Shown here piece after piece: positions 25,402 to 59,017 of a stretch of 64,000 nt of DNA (positions are counted from its first letter, which is position 1; each line of letters starts with the position of its first letter). The position numbers and the translations under genes are program-made. Source of the stretch: Spirochaetota bacterium (lineage in GTDB: Bacteria; Spirochaetota; UBA4802; UBA5550). Under the pieces are notes generated by a model. That model saw only the letters and a program-made list of their open reading frames with translations. It did not search any database and was not told the origin of the DNA. The stretch is from positions 26,306 to 90,305 of the forward strand of contig JBNKTL010000017.1 of NCBI GenBank assembly GCA_050298055.1, written 5' to 3'.

Positions 25402-28400
25402 ATGGGCAAGTATATTAAGGACAGCAGGATTCTGGATGAAGAGGATAAAAAAACAATATTGATTTTTGATGCCGACGATACGTTATGGGAAAGTTCAAAA
25501 CATTGGCGTGATATAAAAATTGATATTGCCCATGAAATCATCAATGTGCTTTTCAAAAACAAAAACAAAATCGTTATGGATTATTTAGATTTGGCAAAAG
25601 AAAAACTTAAGGAGAACAGTGAAGAATTAAAAATTGATTTAAAAGATTATCTTAGGAAACATGAATTAAAAAGTTTTAAAAATAGTATAAAGGAGAAAAT
25701 CCTCATTGATAGAATACAATTATACATTCAACAAGATGATAAAACCGAATATATAAAAGAGTTTATCGTGTCACTTGAAAAACTTGTAATAGATAAGTAT
25801 GATAAGGATTCTTTTAAGATACTCATTGAACTCTTTATAATATATTTCAATTTCAGGGAGGAAAAAAATCATAGCAACAAAGCACGCGGCATCGATAATT
25901 TCAGAACAGTGTTGTTAGAAATTGTCAAAGAATTATTTGATGAAAATGATGAAATAATATGGATTGAATCTTATGTAAATAAAAAAATTCATGAGCTTGA
26001 GTCTATTAGATATACAGCAAAGGACGGTGTGAGATCAGCTCTTTCAATTTTAAAAAAAACACATCACCTTGCGATATTGTCCCAGGGAAGCCCCTATGAG
26101 ATTAATTCAAAATTGAAGACGAGCGGACTCAATGTTTTTTTCGATAATAATAATATAGTTTTAGATTTTAATAAAAATAGTGATTTCAAAGAGTTAAAAA
26201 ATGAAATTCCTCACACTAAAGAAATCTTCTATATTGGGAACAGCCTTAAAAATGATATATTACCGGCATTTAAAGCTGGATTTCGAACCATTTTTTATCC
26301 CAACAGCAACACATGGATAAATGATGATGTTGTCGATAATGAAAATTTTACAGATATCAAAACCTACCTCATACGAACTCCCATGGAGATTATGAGCATT
26401 GTAAATATTAAAAACGAAGAAAAGCTAAAGAAATTGCTAAAATATGATTCTCATACAAAAACAATCAAATACCTGGAAAACGGTAAAACCAATGAAATTA
26501 CCATTTATAATTTCTGCACCCAGAAGGGCTTAATTTTCTGTATTGGCGATTTTATCCATGAAATGTTCGTAATACCCAAAAGTATAGCATATGAATCGGT
26601 GCGCCGCCACTCTGAAATTCACAGGGGTACTGAAAACGATATTTTACCGATTCAGCAGTATGGGGGGGCAATGCTCAGTCAGAGTTTATTAAATGTTTTA
26701 AATACCGGTGAAAACGAATATATTGTTAAATCACCGCCCTGTATTGACGTCAACCAGGCTGAAAGGCTTTATCCGTGGCAGACAGGAACAGTAATAGACA
26801 AAGAGAATAAAGACAGGCTCTACAACCAGCAGATATTCTATCTGAAGAAAAATCAATTTAATGATAACCTTATAGAAAACGGATCAACTTTTCGTGTCGA
26901 AACGCTGCTTACAAGGACATATGCTGAAGATATATATGCCAGGTTGTATAAGTGTATAAAAAACCATAACGACAAAGGAAAACTTGAAACAAAATTATCT
27001 GATTTTTTTGATAATGAGTCATCAATGAACAGCATTCTTAATAAATGCAATAATGATCTATGCATTCATAGTTGTGAGAGAAATTCAGCAGAACATAATA
27101 AAAACGGTTTAATTGAAAAGCTGTCAAGAGAACTTTCAGATAGGTCAGAGGGAAAAACCCAAGATGGTATTCTCTTTAACATATTTAAAAAGAACTTCAG
27201 TTGCTACCATTATAAAAATTGTGATGACCAATTAGAAGATATTTCTTCTCTGTACAGTAATAATGAAAATAGTTACCTGGTAATTGATTATTTTTCGGAT
27301 CAAAATAGAAATAAAAATAAAGATAACATCGCAATCAAAAAATTATTTGAGAATAAAGAGATTAATAATTTTAATACAATTTTCATTAAATGCAACGATC
27401 CCATTGAAGCAATTACTTTGAGTTATAAAATTGATAACATCTGGATAATCGGCAATATAACAAACCTCTTTAATAAATCAGGTACACATTATTATTCATG
27501 GGAAGCGCTTATTGAAGCAGTAATCAAAGAGCTTGAGACATATGAAAATGGATCAATTATTAAAGTAGAAAATTGCTTCAATCTTGTTCTTCTCTGTAAA
27601 AATGAAGGATGCATATATATTGAAAAGAAAAGAAATGAAAATACATTTCATATGCATACCTTTATTGATCCATTCAATCAATACGGCACATTCTCTGCCA
27701 GTAATTATGGATGGGTTGCCGGATTTCAGAATATATTCATCACTAAATTTGTCCATTCATTTGTCTCAGAAAAGTCAATCGATCATGTTAACAGTGTCGG
27801 GGATGCCTGGAAATATGCCAGGGCTGTTTTTCTCCTTGGTTACGGTTCAATAGAATTGATAGAGAATAATGAAATAGATAAAATACCCTCACTAATACCG
27901 GTTGCGGAAAACTTGAAGACAGTGAAAGAGATCATGACCAAATGCGATGAGGAATTAACCGACTTTGAAAAAAAATTCAGAGACTATGTTCAAGATGTTC
28001 TCCAGTATAGTGTCAATGTGGACATGAAAAGAGATGATCAAATGTTCCAACAAGAAGGAAATGAAGGTAAAGTGTACCATTATTCTAAAAACTTTTCATT
28101 ACTCTGTAAATACCGGCTTTCCTTAAAGCAGGCGTTTATTATCTCTGAAAAGATCATTGAATTAGGCCCCGATGCATTAAATAATGATATATATTTTGAA
28201 CCTGGGAAGGAACCAGATAAGAAGATTAGTTTCAGGATACCTTTTTTAAAAATCGGCAACCATATATCGATATTCAGAAAAGAAATCGAAGAGGTAAACC
28301 TGATATATACTGTTATACGCGATTATGTAAAAAGAAAAACAACAAAGCGTCCGCTTTCTATCGCGGTCTTTGGTGAGCCCGGTTCAGGGAAATCGTTTAC

Positions 28401-44616: not shown

Positions 44617-45489
44617 ATGATTGACAAAACCATAACCGGAAAACTCATCGTTGAAGGGAGTGAAAGCTATCTCCTTGATAAGGAAGGCAGAGAACACTTC
44701 AGGGAGAACCTCATCTGGGACGGTTATACGGGGCACTGGGAGGGTGAAAAACTGAACGCGCGGTATCTTCCGCAGAGGGACTACCGTTCCGGTGATCAGA
44801 TCATTATCATGTGGCCCGTTGACAGCGGGGAGGGAAAAGGGGCGGTTGAACTCTATTACAATGAGAGGCTGGTGAAGTACCCTGTCTCGGTCCTGGGTCA
44901 TATTGCACTTAACATTGACGGTTCCCTCTTTAACTTTTCTCATCTGATAAACGAGAATGAGATTGTTACACCGGAAGAATACTTCTTCAGACCCGCACTT
45001 GGGGAGTTTGCTCCCCATCCCGAAACGGGGAGCTATAACGACACCGATCCCCAAAGGCCATACCTGGACAAGTTCGGGAGGCAGTTCATGAGAACGATCC
45101 ATGTCCTGAGGATCCGGGGGCTTGATAACGAGAGACTCATTAAATACTGCAGAAACCAGCTTGAGATCATACACAATACTCCCCGGGACCCGGATAAACC
45201 GGATAAGTATGCCGACTTTAATATTTTCAGGAGAAGCTGCAGTACCATCATCAGGGACTGTTTCCGTGAATACGGATTCACACCCATATCGGGTGTATTT
45301 CCCCGGGACCTCTTTGTGAACATGGCGTACTTTTTTTTCAGGAAAGAAAAAACAAAGAAACTCGGGATATCTTATTATCAGAGAAAACAGCTGAAAGTCC
45401 CGGAAGCGGCATGCAGTAAAATAACGCCGCTTATCAATCCCCTGAACAGGATAAGGGGCTTCCTGATAAGAAAGGACCTTCGTCAATAA
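44617..45489 (+). CDS. Hypothetical protein, possible permuted papain-like (NlpC/P60-type) hydrolase
   Basis: LGHIAL (His) precedes FNIFRRSCST (Cys); RBS AGGAG. Confidence 0.55.
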   Translation: MIDKTITGKLIVEGSESYLLDKEGREHFRENLIWDGYTGHWEGEKLNARYLPQRDYRSGDQIIIMWPVDSGEGKGAVELYYNERLVKYPVSVLGHIALNIDGSLFNFSHLINENEIVTPEEYFFRPALGEFAPHPETGSYNDTDPQRPYLDKFGRQFMRTIHVLRIRGLDNERLIKYCRNQLEIIHNTPRDPDKPDKYADFNIFRRSCSTIIRDCFREYGFTPISGVFPRDLFVNMAYFFFRKEKTKKLGISYYQRKQLKVPEAACSKITPLINPLNRIRGFLIRKDLRQ

Positions 45490-47559: not shown

Positions 47560-49950
47560 ATGGTAGAGGGGAAAAACATCAAGGTTCTTCTCACAGATGA
47601 CGAACGTATCGTGAGGGATGTCTTCGGGATATACCTGGAAACTATCGGTTTCACGGTCATTCAGGCCCAGAACGGGCTGGTCTGCCTGGACCTCTTTGAG
47701 AAGGAGAAGCCTGATATTGTCCTCCTTGACCTGAAGATGCCGGTCATGGACGGGATCGAGACCCTCAAAAGTCTCAAGGAGAAAAACCCGGACATTCCTG
47801 TTATCATCATTTCCGGTGAAGGCCTGGTTGGAGATGTTGTCAGGGCACTGAGACTGGGAGCATGGGACTATATTATCAAGCCTGTGATAGATATGAACAT
47901 CATATCTCATTCCATGGGAAAAGCCCTGGAGAGGAGCCGGCTCATCGAGGAGAACAGGGCCTACCAGGAGAAACTGGAGGACCTTGTAAGACAAAGGACC
48001 GTTGAACTTGACAGGGCGAACAATGAGCTCCATACGATTAACAGCAGGCTGAGAAGTATTGTTTCATCGGCAACCGAGATCTCAAGCTGCAGCAGGATCA
48101 GCGATTTTGGAGAACTCCTGATTAGGGAGTTTGGCAGGCATATGGATACTTCCGGAGGGTCATTATACCTCCTGGAGGATGAGGGCCTGCGGCTCCTCTC
48201 TTCCCTTGGTCCGTCCCACTGTCCCGAATTTATCACATTTCCCCTCAAAGAAGGTACAATATTCCAGAGAACAATTTCCGGCGGGAAATCACTTCTGAGC
48301 AACGACATCAGGAAAGATGAAACATGTTTTCTCAGCGGCTGGGATGGATACATAAATGATTCTCTCTTGACCTTCCCTCTGATCCATGAAAACGGCAGTG
48401 TCATTGCCGTTCTCTCTCTTCATAACAAGTCAAATCCTCCGTTTATACAGCAGGACCAGGAGGTGGGGATGATCCTGACAACCTACAGCTCCGAAGCGCT
48501 GAGAAATATCAGGGCCGTTGAAGACCTGCGGGAGAGTGAAAACAGGTACAGGAAACTCTTCAATAATGCCCGGGACGCAATATTTCTCTGGGAATTGCTT
48601 GATAATAACAATCCCGGGTGCTGTATCGACGCTAATGATGTAGCAGTTGAGATGACCGGCTTTAGCAGGGATGAACTGCTCAGGATGGAACCGGGGGATC
48701 TTGCTTATGGAAATTTCCGGGAAAGCTGTTTGGAAATAATGAAAGAACTTATAAAAACCGGATCTGCGACCATTGAAAGGATTTATAAAACAAAGAAAGG
48801 TGATTTAATACCGGTTGAGATAAGCTCACATGTCTTTCATTTAAAAAAGAAAAGGGTCATTCTCTCTATAACCAGGGACATCACCAGGAGAAAGGAAGCT
48901 GAAGAAAAGATCAGGGAGTCTCTCCGGGAAAAGGAACTGATGCTCAAGGAGATACATCACAGGGTAAAGAACAATATCCAGATCATTATCAGTATTCTTA
49001 ACCTCCAGTCGGAAAAAATAAAAAACCGTGAGGACCTTGAATACTTCGTTGAGAGTGAAAACCGTGTCAGGTCCATCGCCCTTGTTCATGAGATGCTTTA
49101 CCGGTCCGAAAGTCTCTCCAATATTAATTTTAAGGATTATATCACGTCCCTGGTTGAACAGATAGAGATGTTCACCAGCTGCAGAGAGAAAAACATCAAT
49201 ATAAAAGTCAATGCCGAGAACCAGCTCATCGGAATTGAGTCGGCAATACCCTGCGCTCTCATCGTTAATGAACTCATTACCAATGCCGTTAAATATGCTT
49301 TCACCGGTGTTGAAGGAGGAACAATCGGGATAAGTTTTTCCGGAAAAAATGATACCTATTCCCTTGTTGTAACGGATGACGGTCCCGGTTTTCACAGTGA
49401 CTTTAATCTTGAGAAGAGTGAATCTCTTGGCCTCAGGATGGTAAATGAACTGGTGAAACAGCTGAAAGGAAAGATCACGATTGAATCCCGCAAGGGTGTC
49501 CGGATAAGCGTTCTTTTCGGGGATGGTGTGAATCAGGAGTTGAATGAAACTGCGCCTGTGCATGAAGGGTTAACAATGAACGGGAAGCGCCTCCTTCTCG
49601 TTGAGGATGAGAGAATTACGGTACTTCATATAAAGAATATCCTTGAAAATGTGGGATACTCGGTTATTGATACTGTTTCATCGGGGGAGGAAGCGCTTAA
49701 GATTGTCAAAAAGTTCCGGCCGGATATTATTCTTATGGATATCATGCTTGATGGTAAACTGGATGGTATCGACACAGTAGAAATGATTTTAAGGGATTAT
49801 ACCATACCCGTTATATATTTGACTGCCAATACGGACATGTATGTGAAAGAGAGGGCCATGAAGACCAGTCCCTTCGGGTATCTTCCCAAACCCATAGAGA
49901 GGGATGAAATGATAAGGCTTATAGAGAAGGGTCTTTCCGAAAAACAGTAA
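47560..49950 (+). CDS. Hybrid sensor kinase REC-GAF-PAS-HisKA_2-HATPase-REC
   Basis: LLDLKMP receiver; EIHHRVKNN H box; NELITNAVKY; C-terminal LMDIML receiver. Confidence 0.93.
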   Translation: MVEGKNIKVLLTDDERIVRDVFGIYLETIGFTVIQAQNGLVCLDLFEKEKPDIVLLDLKMPVMDGIETLKSLKEKNPDIPVIIISGEGLVGDVVRALRLGAWDYIIKPVIDMNIISHSMGKALERSRLIEENRAYQEKLEDLVRQRTVELDRANNELHTINSRLRSIVSSATEISSCSRISDFGELLIREFGRHMDTSGGSLYLLEDEGLRLLSSLGPSHCPEFITFPLKEGTIFQRTISGGKSLLSNDIRKDETCFLSGWDGYINDSLLTFPLIHENGSVIAVLSLHNKSNPPFIQQDQEVGMILTTYSSEALRNIRAVEDLRESENRYRKLFNNARDAIFLWELLDNNNPGCCIDANDVAVEMTGFSRDELLRMEPGDLAYGNFRESCLEIMKELIKTGSATIERIYKTKKGDLIPVEISSHVFHLKKKRVILSITRDITRRKEAEEKIRESLREKELMLKEIHHRVKNNIQIIISILNLQSEKIKNREDLEYFVESENRVRSIALVHEMLYRSESLSNINFKDYITSLVEQIEMFTSCREKNINIKVNAENQLIGIESAIPCALIVNELITNAVKYAFTGVEGGTIGISFSGKNDTYSLVVTDDGPGFHSDFNLEKSESLGLRMVNELVKQLKGKITIESRKGVRISVLFGDGVNQELNETAPVHEGLTMNGKRLLLVEDERITVLHIKNILENVGYSVIDTVSSGEEALKIVKKFRPDIILMDIMLDGKLDGIDTVEMILRDYTIPVIYLTANTDMYVKERAMKTSPFGYLPKPIERDEMIRLIEKGLSEKQ

Positions 49951-52763: not shown

Positions 52764-53003
52764 GGCAAAATGCCTTCATTAAGATAAAATATAAATAATA
52801 TGACTTTTGGACAAGATCTTTTTTTCCGGAGAGACATATTTTCTTTCCCCGATTTCTTTTCTCCTGATGAAATATTGGCACGGAAGAAGAAATTTACTTG
52901 AAATTATATGAGAATTATTCTTTTGTTAATGTTATTTATCAGTTGAAAAGTGTATGGTACTTGCCTCATAAGAGTGAAGAGAAATACCGAAAATTCATAT
53001 GCA

Positions 53004-55148
53004 ATGAATGAAACTGTGACAAAAAGTGATAATGTAACATTACTGCCCAGGGGAGGTTATCTTATCGATACCCCTACCGGTTATATTCAGATCGGTTCAC
53101 CTCCTGAAACCATTAAGGATACCATGTATATGGAAAAGGGTGTACCGGAGATATTTGTATTATCCGGTGAACTCTTTAACTGGATCAAGGGAATAAGTGT
53201 CGCTGAGATAGAATTTCCCATATATTATAACTTTTTTATTAATAGCAAGAAGACCCACATACTCTGTGAAAAAGATCAACTCTCAAGGATAAAAAGGGTC
53301 CTCCAGGAGGCCATATTCGGTCCCCGGAGAATTGACCTGAAAAGAGACCTGGACCCGTCAATGGACCCCGGCATTTACGATATCAAAAGGGAGATGGAGT
53401 ATTTCAGCGGAAGCCTGAAGATGTCAAACCTTGTGGGTTTCGGTCTTTTTAAAAATAACAGCTATACCTACAAAGGAATAACCATCAAGAGAGATGAAGA
53501 CAACAGCTTTAAGATATTCCACGGGAAAGAGATGCTTGCCCATGTCCCGGGAAAGATTGATTATAAGCCCACATACGAGATAGGTGAACGGCTTGCGGAA
53601 CCGTACATCCCGCCCCTTTTCGGCGTAACATGTCTCGGCCCCAGCCACGGATTTGATCCTACGGCAAATACATCCGGTTTTATCATATGGCTCAACCACC
53701 AGGGAATTATGGTTGATCCGCCGGTGAACTCGACGGAGTGGCTGGAGGATTCAAACATCAATCCGAAACTTATCGATTCGATAATTCTTACCCACTGTCA
53801 CGCGGACCACGACGCCGGGACATTCCAGAAGATACTTGAGGAGAGCAGGGTCACCGTCTATACCACGCAAACCGTAATAGACAGCTTCATGAGAAAGTAC
53901 TCTTCCCTGTCAGGCCTGTCGGTATCATACCTCATGAAGCTTTTTGATTTCCACCCGGTAACAATTGGCGAGCCGGTTTTTATCAACGGCGGCAGGTTTG
54001 ACATGTTCTATACCCTCCACTCCATACCCACTGTGGGGTTCAGGATGGAGTTCCAGGACCAGTCTTTTGTTTACAGTTCGGACCACAATAACGATCCCAA
54101 ACTCCACAGGAAGCTCCTCAACGAAAAGATCATCAGCAAAGAGAGATACGAGGAACTAAAGAATTTCCCCTGGGATTCCAAGGTTATCTACCATGAATCG
54201 GGAGTACCTCCCCTGCATACACCCATAGATTATCTCAATTCTCTGCCCCATGAAATCCAGGCCCGTACGGTTGTGTACCATATCGCGGCAAAGGACTTTC
54301 CCGAAAAAACGGGCCTTACCCTGGCAACCTTCGGGATTGAAAATACCCTTTACTTTCCCACGGAATCTCCCCGGTTCGAAAAGGCATACCAGATACTGGG
54401 TCTCCTGAAGAACCTCGATTTTTTCGAGGACATTCCGGTGAACAAGGCGCAGGAATTCATTGACATTATCGAAGAGGAGAACTACCGGAAGGGTGACCTC
54501 ATTGTTAAAAAGGGGACCACCGGGGACAAGTTCTACATGATACTCCACGGGAACATCTCCGTGGATACCGGGGGCCTCGAGATGAAGAAGATTTACGGGG
54601 CTTACGATTATTTCGGAGAAGTGGCCCTGATTACCGAGGCCAAGAGGGCCGCGGATATTTACGCCGAGACGGATATGGTTGTGTATACCATCACCCGGGA
54701 CAGGTTCCTGAACTTCATTGTGGGAACGGAATTTGAAAAAACACTGAAGCGCCTTGTAAAGATCAGGAGCAGTGAGACATGGAACCTCCTCTCAATGAGC
54801 AAGTTTTTCCAGCACTGCACATCCTCCCAGAAGACATGGCTGGAATCGATTTTCCAGCCGGTTGAGCTGACAAAGAAGGGGACCCTGATAAAAGAGGGCG
54901 AGCATGTTGAGTTTATCTATATCATACGTAAAGGTGAGGTAGAGGTAAAGAAGGGAAGAAAGAAGATCGCCGCGTTAAAGCGGGGTGATTTTATCGGTTC
55001 AATGCTCAAGATCTACAACAGTGAACCGGCAGAGCATACCTTTTCCCCCACCGGTCCCGTTTCCCTCTATGCCATGCAGAGAAAGGACATCCTGAGGTTT
55101 CTTGACAAGAACCCGGGAATTTTAATGAAATCGGTCTATGATTTTTAG
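53004..55148 (+). CDS. Metallo-beta-lactamase-fold cyclic nucleotide phosphodiesterase with two cNMP-binding domains
   Basis: THCHADHD; FGEVAL...RAA cNMP site; second, degenerate cNMP domain. Confidence 0.88.
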   Translation: MNETVTKSDNVTLLPRGGYLIDTPTGYIQIGSPPETIKDTMYMEKGVPEIFVLSGELFNWIKGISVAEIEFPIYYNFFINSKKTHILCEKDQLSRIKRVLQEAIFGPRRIDLKRDLDPSMDPGIYDIKREMEYFSGSLKMSNLVGFGLFKNNSYTYKGITIKRDEDNSFKIFHGKEMLAHVPGKIDYKPTYEIGERLAEPYIPPLFGVTCLGPSHGFDPTANTSGFIIWLNHQGIMVDPPVNSTEWLEDSNINPKLIDSIILTHCHADHDAGTFQKILEESRVTVYTTQTVIDSFMRKYSSLSGLSVSYLMKLFDFHPVTIGEPVFINGGRFDMFYTLHSIPTVGFRMEFQDQSFVYSSDHNNDPKLHRKLLNEKIISKERYEELKNFPWDSKVIYHESGVPPLHTPIDYLNSLPHEIQARTVVYHIAAKDFPEKTGLTLATFGIENTLYFPTESPRFEKAYQILGLLKNLDFFEDIPVNKAQEFIDIIEEENYRKGDLIVKKGTTGDKFYMILHGNISVDTGGLEMKKIYGAYDYFGEVALITEAKRAADIYAETDMVVYTITRDRFLNFIVGTEFEKTLKRLVKIRSSETWNLLSMSKFFQHCTSSQKTWLESIFQPVELTKKGTLIKEGEHVEFIYIIRKGEVEVKKGRKKIAALKRGDFIGSMLKIYNSEPAEHTFSPTGPVSLYAMQRKDILRFLDKNPGILMKSVYDF

Positions 55149-55462: not shown

Positions 55463-56497
55463 ATGCGTTATAGCCTGGCAATTAATGGTTACGGTCGTAT
55501 CGGACGTTGCGTATTGCGCGCCCTCTACGAGGCCGGTTTGCAAAAAGAAATGCAAATCGTTGCCATCAATGAGCCTGCCGATCTCAATACCATTTGCCAT
55601 CTGACCAGGTACGATTCAACCCATGGCCGTTTCCCCGGCCAGGTCAGTTGCGGAGACGGTCAGGTACTGAATGTTAACGGTGACCGGATAAGCGTTTATC
55701 AGCAGAACGATCACAGCCTGCTTAACTGGCGGGACCAGCATATTGACCTGGTCCTGGAGTGTACCGGGGAAGTGAACACTATCGATGATGCCGGGCTGTT
55801 GCTCAGTGCCGGTTCCCGGCGTGTGTTGTTTTCTTATCCCGGTGAGGCGGACCTGATGGACAGCACCATTGTTTATGGTGTGAATGAGGCCCGGATTTCC
55901 GCGGAGCAGCGTTTTGTTTCCGCGGCTTCCTGTACCACCAACTGTATCGTCCCTGTCATAAAGGTGCTGGATGATGCCTTCGGTATCGAGGCGGGGACGA
56001 TTACCACGATTCACTCCTCCATGAATGACCAGCCGGTTATTGATGCTTATCATCATACCGATCTGCGTAAGACCCGGGCCGCCGGCCAGTCGATTATACC
56101 GGTTGATACCGGTCTGGCCAGAGGAATTGGCCGTGTTTTACCGCATATGGAAGGTGTATTTACCGCCCATGCCCTGCGTGTTGCCACCATTAATGTTTCG
56201 GCCATGGATCTGGTGGTGTTGGTTCGCAGGGATGTGAACAGCTCCCGGGTCAATGCCGTTTTGCAGCAGGCGGCTGAAGGTGGATTGGCAAAAATAATGG
56301 GTTACACAACAGAGCCCCTGGCCAGTTGTGACTTTAACCATGATCCGCGTTCGGTTGTTGTGGATGCCAGTCAAACCTGTGTCAGTAACAGCCGCCTGGT
56401 TAAGGTATTATGCTGGTTTGATAACGAATGGGCTTACGCCAACCGCATGCTGGATATTGCCATGGTAATGAAGCAACTGGATTTCGAAAGTCAATAA
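55463..56497 (+). CDS. epd: Erythrose-4-phosphate dehydrogenase (GAPDH family)
   Basis: INGYGRIGR, ASCTTNC, HSSMNDQPVIDAYHHTDLRKTR (Epd-type), WFDNEW. Confidence 0.85.
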   Translation: MRYSLAINGYGRIGRCVLRALYEAGLQKEMQIVAINEPADLNTICHLTRYDSTHGRFPGQVSCGDGQVLNVNGDRISVYQQNDHSLLNWRDQHIDLVLECTGEVNTIDDAGLLLSAGSRRVLFSYPGEADLMDSTIVYGVNEARISAEQRFVSAASCTTNCIVPVIKVLDDAFGIEAGTITTIHSSMNDQPVIDAYHHTDLRKTRAAGQSIIPVDTGLARGIGRVLPHMEGVFTAHALRVATINVSAMDLVVLVRRDVNSSRVNAVLQQAAEGGLAKIMGYTTEPLASCDFNHDPRSVVVDASQTCVSNSRLVKVLCWFDNEWAYANRMLDIAMVMKQLDFESQ

Positions 56498-56610
56498 CGG
56501 AACAAATTTTATAAAGTTGCCGGCTATTAATTTAAGGAATGTAGTGATATTTTCGGATAAACATTACCGGGTTACGACCCTGTTTTTAAGAATAATAATT
56601 CGGCGCTCCA

Positions 56611-56682
56611 CAATATCAATAATATCGATAATAACTATTGATAATATTAATACTTGACATTCTCGTTATTACCCTGACCATG
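56611..56682 (+). promoter_or_regulatory. Putative promoter and operator of the tRNA/DCCP locus
   Basis: TATCGATA-N5-TATTGATA imperfect palindrome (56623-56643) and 9-bp repeats immediately upstream of TTGACA (56654-56659); weak -10 GACCAT. Confidence 0.45.
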
Positions 56683-56686
56683 TCCC

Positions 56687-56777
56687 GGATCGGTTGAGGG
56701 GGCTGGGCCCCCCGCGGGCTGCAAACCCGTCGGAAAGCTTATATGCTTTCGGGTGGTTCGATTCCGCCTCCGATCTC
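56687..56777 (+). tRNA. Non-canonical tRNA: tRNA-Sec-like fold with GCA (Cys) anticodon (selC*-like tRNA-Cys or tRNA-Sec(GCA))
   Basis: Acceptor GGATCGG/CCGATCT; D arm GGGGGC-TGG-GCCCCC; anticodon arm GCGGG-CT GCA AA-CCCGT; variable arm GAAAGC-TTATAT-GCTTTC; T arm GGTGG-TTCGATT-CCGCC. Confidence 0.85.
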
Positions 56778-56798
56778 ATGGAATAATAATTTTTAACA

Positions 56799-56935
56799 GT
56801 AACTACTCGGCTCTATGGAGAAATAAACCTGTTTATCAAAATATCAACAGGATGTCCCCGCTCCTTCGGCTGCGGGGACATCCCGGTTATTTTTTTAATA
56901 AATATGATTAGTCTTTAACATGGCTGAGTAGCAAC
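56799..56935 (+). mobile_element. MITE-like element copy
   Basis: TIRs GTAACTACTCGGC...GCTGAGTAGCAAC; internal AAAATATCAACAGGATGTCCCCGC..CTTCGG..GCGGGGACATCC. Confidence 0.75.
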
Positions 56936-56960
56936 TTATAGTGAAAAAAGAGGTACCTTT

Positions 56961-58259
56961 ATGAATGCGGCAAAATTTGAAGTAAAATCCTATCCGAAGA
57001 TGTGGGAAAGTCTGGACATGGATGTTGAAAGGTTTGATAAAGCACGCCTTGCGCTTGGAGAAGTCTACACAAATACATTTCTTTCCCAGGAGAACCGGCC
57101 CCGCATGATGCGCTATTTTGATGAGATGGTATCTGAAATTTTTGGACGCCGTATTGAGGAGCTGCTTGAAGTAAAGAAATCGGGTAAGCCTGTAGTGGGG
57201 ACTTTTTGTGTTTATATCCCCGAAGAGATCGTTGTCGCCGCAGGGGGCGTATGCGTGGGTCTCTGCGGAGGATCACAGGGCTCCGTACCTGATGCGGAAA
57301 AAATTCTTCCCAGGAATATCTGCCCCATGGTCAAGTCCGCTTACGGTTTTAAAGAGGGGAGAATATGTCCCTACTTCCAGAGTGTTGATTTTGTCTATGG
57401 AGAAACCACCTGTGACGCGAAGAAAAAGACATGGGAACTCCTTGACCGGCTGGTGCCCACCCATGTGATGGAGATCCCCCAGATGAAGAAAAAGCGGGAT
57501 AAAGACCTGTGGCTGGAGGAAGTAAAAGATTTCAAAACAAAGGTGGAAGAGATCAGTAAAACAACGATATCAACCGAAGATCTGAAAAACGCCATTAATG
57601 TCATCAATAATAAACGAAAAGCCCTTCAGGACCTTACAAGATTAAGGGCCCACAATCCCGCCCCCATCAGCGGAAGAGATGCTTTGCTTATTGAGCAGAT
57701 TGCATTTTATGATGAACCTGTCCGTTTTGCCGATAAGCTCAATGAGTTGTGCCGGGAGCTTGAAGAACGGGTCAGCAGCGGAACAGGCATTGCTGCCGGC
57801 GAATCTCCCCGGGTCATGATATCGGGAACTCCTATGGCCCTCCCCAACTGGAAGGTGCATAACCTTGTGGAAAGTGCCGGGGCCGTCGTGGTCAATGAGG
57901 AAAGCTGTATTGGCACCCGGTATTTTAAAGATCTCATTGATGAAGATAAAAATTCACTGGACGAACAGCTTGACGTGCTTACGGACCGTTATATGCGGAT
58001 AGACTGTTCCTGTTTTACTCCCAATGATGAACGGGTTGACCAGGTTTTGAAAGAATTTAAAGATTCCCGGGCCCAGGGTATCCTTCACTATTCCCTCCAG
58101 TTCTGTCACACATATAATATCGAAGAGGTAAAAATCCGGGAAGCCTGCGAAAAGGAAGGCATCCCCTATCTTTCCATTGAATCCGATTACTCACCGGAGG
58201 ATGTTGGACAGCTGCAGACCAGGATCGAGGCTTTCCTGGAACAGATAAGGGAGCAATAA
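56961..58259 (+). CDS. Double-cubane-cluster protein / 2-hydroxyacyl-CoA dehydratase family
   Basis: GTFCVYIPEE, LCGG, NICP, ETTCDAKKK, EESC, DCSCF, QFCH, IESDYS..D.GQL.TRIEAF. Confidence 0.9.
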   Translation: MNAAKFEVKSYPKMWESLDMDVERFDKARLALGEVYTNTFLSQENRPRMMRYFDEMVSEIFGRRIEELLEVKKSGKPVVGTFCVYIPEEIVVAAGGVCVGLCGGSQGSVPDAEKILPRNICPMVKSAYGFKEGRICPYFQSVDFVYGETTCDAKKKTWELLDRLVPTHVMEIPQMKKKRDKDLWLEEVKDFKTKVEEISKTTISTEDLKNAINVINNKRKALQDLTRLRAHNPAPISGRDALLIEQIAFYDEPVRFADKLNELCRELEERVSSGTGIAAGESPRVMISGTPMALPNWKVHNLVESAGAVVVNEESCIGTRYFKDLIDEDKNSLDEQLDVLTDRYMRIDCSCFTPNDERVDQVLKEFKDSRAQGILHYSLQFCHTYNIEEVKIREACEKEGIPYLSIESDYSPEDVGQLQTRIEAFLEQIREQ

Positions 58260-59017
58260 TGCTTATCGGTGTAGATCTCGGGTCACGGGCCATTAAGATC
58301 GCCGTGATGGTCAACGGTGCGCTTCATGATTCCCAGAAGAAAGAAAGCGGTTTTGAACCGCATACCCAGGCGAAAAGTATGCTTGCGGCATACAGTCCCG
58401 GTAAAATTATAGCAACCGGCTACGGGAGGCATCTTGCCCAGAAACATTTTGCCCATGAAGTCATCACTGAAATTAAGGCCCATGCACTGGGGGCGCGGCA
58501 TTTTTTCCCTGACTGTACCACTGTTCTCGATGTGGGAGGACAGGACTCCAAGGTCATTTCACTTGACGGGGAGGGAAGGGTCATAAATTTCCAGATGAAT
58601 GACAAATGCGCGGCGGGGACAGGCCGCTTTCTGGAAATCATGGCCGCCTCCCTGGGCTATACAATAGGTGAATTTGGTGATGCGGCCCTTTCCTCAACCA
58701 GGGAGGTGTCTATTAACAGCATGTGTACCGTGTTTGCCGAATCGGAAGTTATTTCAATGAAAAATTCGGGTATCTCTCCCGCTGATATTGCCAGGGCCGT
58801 TCACCTGTCCGTTGTGAACAGGCTGGCTGCCATGCTTGAGAGAATTGGCATTGGAGAATCAATCGTCTTTTCCGGCGGGGTCGCCAATAACCGGTGTATT
58901 GTCAAACTGCTGGAGGAGAACCTGAATAAACCGGTACATATACCGGAGACCCCTGATATTGTGGGGGCAATCGGTGCTGCCGTTTATGCCCGGAATCACA
59001 GTCCGGGTGCCGTCTGA
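58259..59017 (+). CDS. ATP-dependent activase/reductase (HgdC/BadFG, DCCP-R type)
   Basis: GVDLGS, ATGYGR, DVGGQDSK, MNDKCAAGTGRFLE, CTVFAESE. Confidence 0.95.
   Translation: MLIGVDLGSRAIKIAVMVNGALHDSQKKESGFEPHTQAKSMLAAYSPGKIIATGYGRHLAQKHFAHEVITEIKAHALGARHFFPDCTTVLDVGGQDSKVISLDGEGRVINFQMNDKCAAGTGRFLEIMAASLGYTIGEFGDAALSSTREVSINSMCTVFAESEVISMKNSGISPADIARAVHLSVVNRLAAMLERIGIGESIVFSGGVANNRCIVKLLEENLNKPVHIPETPDIVGAIGAAVYARNHSPGAV

Follow-up and report, generated by a model that had tools for sequence, protein, structure and literature searches.

A tRNA-Sec-shaped tRNA gene with a cysteine anticodon, very probably of the selC* (tRNAReC) family, in a Leptospirales genome

INTRODUCTION

The tRNA-Cys species encoded by selC* form a family that was reportedly renamed tRNAReC by Vargas-Rodriguez et al. 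in 2018. As described in the parts of Mukai et al. 2017 available to us (PMC5389517), these tRNAs resemble tRNA-Sec but have U73, with either GCA or UCA as the anticodon, and their hosts are anaerobes with a complete Sec apparatus, to which some deltaproteobacteria add a second selB (selB*) and a second cysS (cysS*). The accessible text of that paper and of a 2020 review names Firmicutes, Thermodesulfobacteria, Nitrospirae, and Proteobacteria as host phyla. Published tests, as far as these sources cover them, concern the clostridial member of D. nigrificans and the deltaproteobacterial ones of D. tiedjei and D. biacutus, which belong to other subgroups than the tRNA treated here, and the 8-bp acceptor (8/4 or 8/5) of the tested members was reported to be important for suppression (PMC5389517). 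The tRNA-Cys(GCA) of D. nigrificans is described, in the available sections of a later study, as decoding UGA with Cys, being delivered by SelB and showing no interaction with EF-Tu (PMC11415595). A further paper, also available in part, defines tRNAReC operationally by a length of at least 80 nt, a UCA or GCA anticodon, and a U discriminator, and reports it in Armatimonadota, Desulfobacterota, and JAPLJL01 (PMC13582414).

Two other groups of unusual tRNAs come close to this family. The tRNA-Sec(GCA) of Aeromonas salmonicida puts Sec at UGC (Mukai et al. 2016, as cited in the available text of PMC11415595), and the allo-tRNAs, with 8/4 or 9/3 branches and many anticodons, are read as Ser or Ala acceptors in the sections of PMC5389517 at hand. 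Here, we describe a tRNA gene of a spirochete that combines the shape of tRNA-Sec with the anticodon of tRNA-Cys and compare it with these systems.

RESULTS AND DISCUSSION

Structure of the tRNA gene

The window, which is the whole 64-kb stretch of DNA that was analyzed, corresponds to positions 26306 to 90305 of contig C17 of a 4.7-Mb genome (199 contigs, 98% complete) and contains an intact 89-nt tRNA gene with the anticodon GCA (Table 1). The initial annotation had described a Sec-type cloverleaf at this site (D stem, TGG loop, GCA anticodon loop, variable arm, T arm, no CCA), and every one of these elements is in the sequence. The Sec-type architecture was also borne out by tRNA models, as the Rfam tRNA-Sec family (RF01852) matched with 61.1 bits (cut-off, 47; E value, 6e-10), the sole Rfam family match in the 64 kb, and ARAGORN called a tRNA-Cys(gca) at 56688 to 56777 and drew the same cloverleaf. 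The minimum free energy fold is again the cloverleaf (-44.8 kcal/mol, z score of -3.1), with 1 of 200 shuffles equally good. CCA is not encoded after the tRNA, which is normal here, because the selC and the ordinary tRNA-Cys of the same genome also lack it.

Table 1 Features of the tRNA gene and its flanks (positions of the window)
Feature	Position	Strand	Details	Evidence
GAPDH gene	55463-56497		upstream of the tRNA	
TTGACA, candidate -35	56654-56659	+	exact hexamer, 29 nt before the tRNA, weak	by eye
G at position -1	56687	+	could pair with U56776 as an eighth acceptor pair	Rfam alignment begins here
tRNA gene, selC*/tRNAReC-type tRNA-Cys(GCA) (very probable)	56688-56776	+		ARAGORN, Rfam RF01852, MFE cloverleaf, covariation in 61 homologues
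Acceptor helix	56688-56693 with 56770-56775	+	6 bp, G56688-C56775 to G56693-C56770	ARAGORN drawing
Acceptor/T junction non-pair	56694, 56769	+	U56694 opposite U56769	sequence, ARAGORN drawing
D arm	56698-56712	+	stem GGGGGC/GCCCCC, 56698-56703 with 56707-56712; loop TGG	sequence, ARAGORN
Anticodon arm	56714-56730	+	5-bp stem, loop CTGCAAA; GCA at 56721-56723	sequence, ARAGORN
Variable arm	56733-56750	+	6-bp stem GAAAGC/GCTTTC, 6-nt loop	sequence, ARAGORN
T arm	56752-56768	+	GGTGG-TTCGATT-CCGCC	sequence, ARAGORN
Discriminator U	56776	+		sequence, ARAGORN, homologues
Terminator-like hairpin	56850-56896	+	12 bp, 56850-56861 with 56872-56883; T run to 56896; 74 nt 3' of the tRNA	fold, terminator scan
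HGD-D dehydratase component	56961-58259		downstream of the tRNA	
Dehydratase activator	58259-59017		follows the HGD-D gene	

Two readings of the acceptor had been proposed, one of eight positions closed by the first G and the last U, and the other starting one base later with U as the discriminator. Only 27 of 61 related sequences have at -1 an A or G, which could pair with U73, so we place the mature 5' end at G56688 and the discriminator at U56776, as in the second reading; G56687 is probably part of the leader, outside the mature tRNA. In this copy, position 8:65 is a U opposite a C and 49:65 is a G-C pair, which gives an acceptor/T branch of 7/5 (12 bp), and a 13-bp branch would require the G-1:U73 pair, which is unconserved among the relatives. 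The suggestion that the anticodon might hide a T-to-G error at 56721 was not upheld. Two DNA runs from a single study (X1 and X2, the former of which may itself be the source of the window's DNA) yielded contigs with 0 differences over 56400 to 57000, and GCA is found in all homologues, a set retrieved with a motif that itself fixed the anticodon; the GCA anticodon is therefore not an assembly error.

The 6-bp D stem with its short loop, the length of the variable arm, and the above-threshold score are common to this tRNA and bacterial tRNA-Sec (RF01852); it differs from the latter in having GCA instead of UCA, U73 instead of G73, a 12-bp instead of a 13-bp (8/5) branch, and a location away from selA and selB; the true selC of the genome (73 bits) has all the tRNA-Sec features. 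GCA, U73, and G1:C72 are those of canonical tRNA-Cys, including the 73-nt copy of this genome. However, canonical tRNA-Cys is a molecule of about 74 nt with a short variable loop and a D stem of 3 to 4 bp, whereas the window's tRNA is 16 nt longer than the genome's own copy, has 6 bp in both the D stem and the variable arm, and leaves 7:66 unpaired.

The best match among described tRNAs is the selC*/tRNAReC family, with which the window's tRNA has in common a length of about 90 nt, the Sec-like D arm, the long variable arm, GCA, U73, G1:C72, and the coexistence with canonical selC, selA, selB, and selD. With 89 nt, GCA, and a U discriminator, it also fits the definition of tRNAReC in the available text of PMC13582414. 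The published table rows were compared by eye only; the nearest one is that of Thermodesulfatator atlanticus, which has U73, a GGCCGG acceptor, and TGGT in the D loop but encodes no CCA, and the Smithella rows (UCA, GACCGG type) are also near, both in the accessible part of PMC5389517. This copy differs in that it has no adjacent selB* or cysS*, its acceptor sequence is GAUCGG, and its branch is 7/5 with U7 opposite U66 rather than 8/4 with an A51a bulge.

Sec machinery and other tRNAs of the host genome

The host genome codes for a canonical tRNA-Sec(UCA) on contig C5 (73 bits, 8-bp acceptor, G73), with selA and selB directly after it, and the Sec-shaped GCA tRNA is distinct from this selC. 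The genome also contains selD with one in-frame TGA, one full-length cysS above the cut-off, and elsewhere an ordinary 73-nt tRNA-Cys(GCA) with G1:C72 and U73. All of these are on contigs other than the window's, and the initial annotation was right in seeing no selA, selB, or cysS within the window. Genome-wide searches with TIGR00475 and TIGR00435 gave no second selB (selB*) and no second cysS above the cut-off, their other matches being partial and belonging to other GTPases and to other synthetases, respectively. The CysRS gene is at 107589 to 109004 of contig C4, selB at 45114 to 46913 of C5, and the gene for EF-Tu at 49583 to 50464 of C3.

Two of the three FlpD/MvhD homologues of the genome and its sole DUF1573 homologue have one in-frame TGA each, so that, with selD, at least four genes are candidate UGA targets. 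The discriminator is G73 in all five tRNAs served by SerRS (four tRNA-Ser and tRNA-Sec) and U73 in both GCA tRNAs, a comparison in which two ARAGORN ends were off by one base and were corrected by eye. The CysRS identity set (GCA, U73, G1:C72) is the same in the Sec-shaped tRNA and in the normal tRNA-Cys; in the selC* family, G1:C72 accompanies U73 in members that rely on the ordinary CysRS.

In another of the related genomes (G034; loci L036 and L060), tRNA-Sec(UCA) is encoded twice, each time on a different contig.

Relatives and distribution

A scan of 61 related genomes with RF01852 gave a match in 53, and five of the 61 (the window's genome G000, G019, G040, G047, and G057) carry a GCA copy of this kind, all five of them together with tRNA-Sec(UCA). 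A motif derived from the window's tRNA was found in 9 of 122 genomes of the host's order, which we take to be Leptospirales (7 of 78 among the high-quality ones), and within the host's own family in G000 plus 2 of 63 genomes. The gene is thus rare and patchy in Leptospirales. One of the host-family copies (G122, contig C31, 11776 to 11828; L169) has a core like that of genus g30, which belongs to another family, and unlike the G000 and G019 types, which points to either lateral transfer inside the order or a mix-up during binning. At L169, the sequence about 70 nt upstream of the GCA tRNA looks like the T arm and 3' end of a further tRNA, which the GCA tRNA directly follows, and it is therefore part of a tRNA cluster at that locus.

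Across 185,579 species genomes, the motif retrieved at least 119 loci, each from a species genome. Of the 87 loci L068 to L154, ARAGORN called 80 as tRNA-Cys(gca) of about 90 nt and left seven uncalled. Among ten carriers from other phyla, tRNA-Sec(UCA) was found in eight, and selC was not found at an E value of ≤1e-7 in the other two (G064 and G067, genomes whose completeness is not known), so that the Sec trait accompanies the GCA-type tRNA in 13 of the 15 carriers checked. The matches include a Desulfomonile tiedjei MAG (L162) and Desulfoscipio geothermicus DSM 3669 (L124), and both organisms are in the table of Mukai et al. 2017, the latter as Desulfotomaculum geothermicum, going by the accessible part of that paper (PMC5389517). 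The L124 sequence, the sole locus so compared, agrees by eye with its row in that table.

The GGCCGG-type subgroup and covariation

We split 121 sequences (119 loci among the matches listed, the window's tRNA, and that of G047) by their first six bases. The GGGGGCAA/GGGGAGAA type makes up 58 of the 121 among the matches listed, mostly with an encoded CCA, in deltaproteobacterial, Nitrospirota, and clostridial records, and corresponds to most rows of the 2017 table in the available text (PMC5389517). The remaining 63, again among the matches listed, are of the GGCCGG type, which includes the window's tRNA. Their labels are Acidobacteriota, Planctomycetota, Actinomycetota, Desulfobulbales-like deltaproteobacteria (Desulfobacterota), Krumholzibacteria, some Clostridia (Bacillota), and Spirochaetota. 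L088 and L176 were left out of this set for mis-set 5' ends, and three GGCCGG-like sequences that fell in the other bin (L107, L168, and L186) were not used. The remaining 61 distinct sequences form alignment A1, which was scored against the cloverleaf.

Standard pairs occupy 93.2% of the cells of A1 against 81.1% after shuffling, both sides of the pair change at 20 of 29 pairs, and none of 500 shuffles reached any of the five measures; when the partners were slid, just 34 to 56% were paired. Invariance of the anticodon stem, the T loop, and two pairs of the T stem is uninformative because the motif fixed them; the covariation sits in the pairs that it left free, those of the acceptor, the D and variable stems, and the outer T stem. 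All 61 aligned relatives have G1:C72 and U73. The window's copy has compensated acceptor changes with respect to the others (GAUCGG/CCGAUC versus GGCCGG/CCGGCC) and keeps every stem. The gene is intact and under selection.

Position 7:66 (A1 columns 7 and 91; the junction non-pair of Table 1) is non-standard in 44 of the 61, mostly a U opposite a C; tRNAs do not usually conserve a mismatch where the acceptor and T stems meet. Position 8:65 is pairable in 33 of 61 subgroup members and 49:65 in 51. With the allo-tRNAs, the subgroup shares the 12-bp branch, the long variable arm, presence in Acidobacteria and, in most members, a long D stem with a tetraloop, but it differs from them in being uniformly GCA/U73/G1:C72 in the retrieved set, the GCA being fixed by the motif.

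Proposed function and alternatives

We have little doubt that the gene is a real and functional member of the selC* tRNA-Cys/tRNAReC family, and its tRNA is likely charged with cysteine, judging from the identity elements. In the model that we favor, the single canonical CysRS of the genome would charge the Sec-shaped tRNA with cysteine, and SelB, not EF-Tu, would bring the Cys-tRNA to those UGA codons that precede a SECIS element, so that Cys would be placed where Sec normally goes, plausibly as a backup under selenium scarcity. A selC*/tRNAReC tRNA that is charged by CysRS, borne by SelB, and inserts Cys at UGA/SECIS sites is, as a whole, the best explanation, and a somewhat probable one; the SelB-mediated reading of UGA as Cys by this particular tRNA, taken separately, is a claim on which we would be evenly divided. 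On sequence, either SelB or EF-Tu may be the carrier, since this copy is 7/5 and not built on the 8-bp acceptor of the tested members, and the 7/5 branch could favor EF-Tu. Conversely, the 7:66 region, to which the EF-Tu antideterminant of Escherichia coli tRNA-Sec was reportedly mapped (Rudinger et al. 1996), has a conserved non-pair in these tRNAs that would fit EF-Tu rejection.

One alternative is an ordinary extra Cys isoacceptor, charged by CysRS, carried by EF-Tu, and reading UGC and UGU, with the Sec-like shape as a relic. A 7/5 branch of 12 bp as in elongator tRNAs, the frequent pairability of 49:65 against that of 8:65, and the lack of a dedicated SelB paralogue in the genome all agree with it. 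A tested family member is, however, reported not to interact with EF-Tu in the available text of PMC11415595. The genome already has a normal tRNA-Cys, the family tracks the Sec trait, and the Sec-like D arm and the 7:66 non-pair are kept across phyla, needless for a redundant isoacceptor, so we regard this explanation as rather unlikely. Less likely still, and in our opinion improbable, the GGCCGG subgroup, and especially the 7/5 copy, would work differently from the tested clostridial tRNAReC: given its 12-bp branch, the conserved 7:66 non-pair, and the lack of a SelB paralogue, it would be accepted by EF-Tu or be an object of competition between CysRS and SerRS/SelA, placing Cys (occasionally Sec) at UGC/UGU in a regulated way; if true, this would make an EF-Tu-accepted or dual-charged subgroup a second functional class in the family, across many phyla.

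The initial annotation had left two possibilities, a selC-derived tRNA-Cys or a tRNA recoding Cys codons to Sec. GCA, U73, G1:C72, the coexisting selC and Sec machinery, and homology uphold the former. The annotation did not take into account the mechanism reported for this family, in which SelB inserts Cys at UGA/SECIS. In the second, as with A. salmonicida tRNA-Sec(GCA), SerRS would charge the tRNA and SelA would convert Ser to Sec, which would then be inserted at selected UGC/UGU codons. The long variable arm and the 6-bp D stem, features used by SerRS and SelA on tRNA-Sec, are both present here, and the Sec-like shape and cysteine anticodon are shared with the A. salmonicida tRNA. The latter reportedly has G73, whereas the spirochete tRNA has a U discriminator and coexists with a separate UCA selC, located beside selA and selB. 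Although G73 or U73 with a long variable arm can suit SerRS in allo-tRNAs, according to the accessible part of PMC5389517, U73 is here that of the normal tRNA-Cys, against G73 in the four tRNA-Ser and the tRNA-Sec of the genome, and it is invariant in the subgroup (61 of 61); the branch moreover has 12 bp and not 13. Insertion of Sec at Cys codons thus seems very unlikely.

Equally far-fetched, in our view, is a non-decoding role, such as a decoy binding SelB or SelA or a regulatory RNA tuning Sec insertion. It would account for the Sec-like shape, the tracking of the Sec trait, and the patchy distribution, but the CUGCAAA loop, U73, G1:C72, the D-loop GG, and the T-loop TTC are kept as in a working elongator tRNA, in part because the motif forced them. 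Finally, a presence in just 9 of the 122 genomes of the order and a host genome in 199 contigs, apparently metagenome assembled, might point to a pseudogene or to an assembly or binning artifact. This we consider exceedingly improbable, as no stem is broken and the sequence differs from its relatives in a compensatory way, the gene is inside a 90-kb contig with ordinary genes on either side, and the contigs of two runs are identical.

Novelty and implications

The kind is already known and in part characterized, having been described as selC* tRNA-Cys by Mukai et al. in 2017. What may be new here is Spirochaetota as a host phylum and the breadth of the GGCCGG subgroup, both of which a 2018 survey may already cover. 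The initial annotation knew of no report from this lineage, which is plausible: there is no spirochete among the 54 rows of the 2017 table, nor a mention of Spirochaetes or Leptospira in the 2017 supplement, within the parts of PMC5389517 available to us. The subgroup, present in at least 61 species-level genomes under the labels given above, has a broader range than the accessible text of the 2017 paper and the 2020 review describes. The picture of how the family works is left unchanged by this case. In organisms with a tRNA of this type, the UGA codons of selenoprotein genes may specify Cys in addition to Sec, and caution is therefore due with predicted selenoproteomes and with the selenium dependence of these anaerobes.

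Genomic surroundings

The tRNA gene is located between a GAPDH gene and a gene for an HGD-D dehydratase component, which is followed by that of its activator (Table 1). No convincing -10 follows the TTGACA upstream of the tRNA, and a scan for consensus sigma-70-like promoters gave no site on the + strand upstream of it. Downstream, the hairpin with its T run looks like a terminator; the fold of 56778 to 56900 has a z score of -3.2, and the terminator scan recovered part of the hairpin.

Neighboring genes vary among the Leptospirales loci, and the HGD-D gene recurs in three of the six examined. It adjoins the tRNA in three genomes of two families, downstream of it in the window and upstream in L188 (2636 to 3916) and L128 (1803 to 2438); the open frame of the latter holds only the C-terminal part of the domain. 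The host genome has nine HGD-D paralogues, none with an in-frame stop. We also considered the neighbors as selenoprotein genes, and screening 42 loci for TGA read-through yielded 170 candidates, which were mostly noise. The single conserved case of read-through (L075 and L076) turned out, from the translations, to be two separate genes sharing one frame. At these two loci, there is a conserved Cys-rich ORF of 142 amino acids next to the tRNA (L075, 2694 to 3119; L076, 1943 to 2368; CGMACCV...CSPRH) without a Pfam match, and a TonB-receptor-like gene comes after it in the same frame; both loci are of the Acidobacteriota type.

The genes nearest to GGCCGG-type tRNAs often belong to thiol/redox families, and many of the loci are syntenic. 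These include DUF1573 (L075, L076, L080, L082, and L146), AhpC/TSA (L070 to L072), CCG/Fer4 HdrD-like proteins (L104, L122, and L139), TusA (L092 and L123), MsrB-MsrA (L188, L189, and L128), and a molybdopterin oxidoreductase with an HdrA-like protein (L098). Several of these families have selenoprotein members, and the copies next to the tRNAs are uninterrupted and presumably Cys forms. Last, the window codes at 52950 to 55148 for a 732-amino-acid protein with a metallo-beta-lactamase fold and two cyclic-nucleotide-binding domains.
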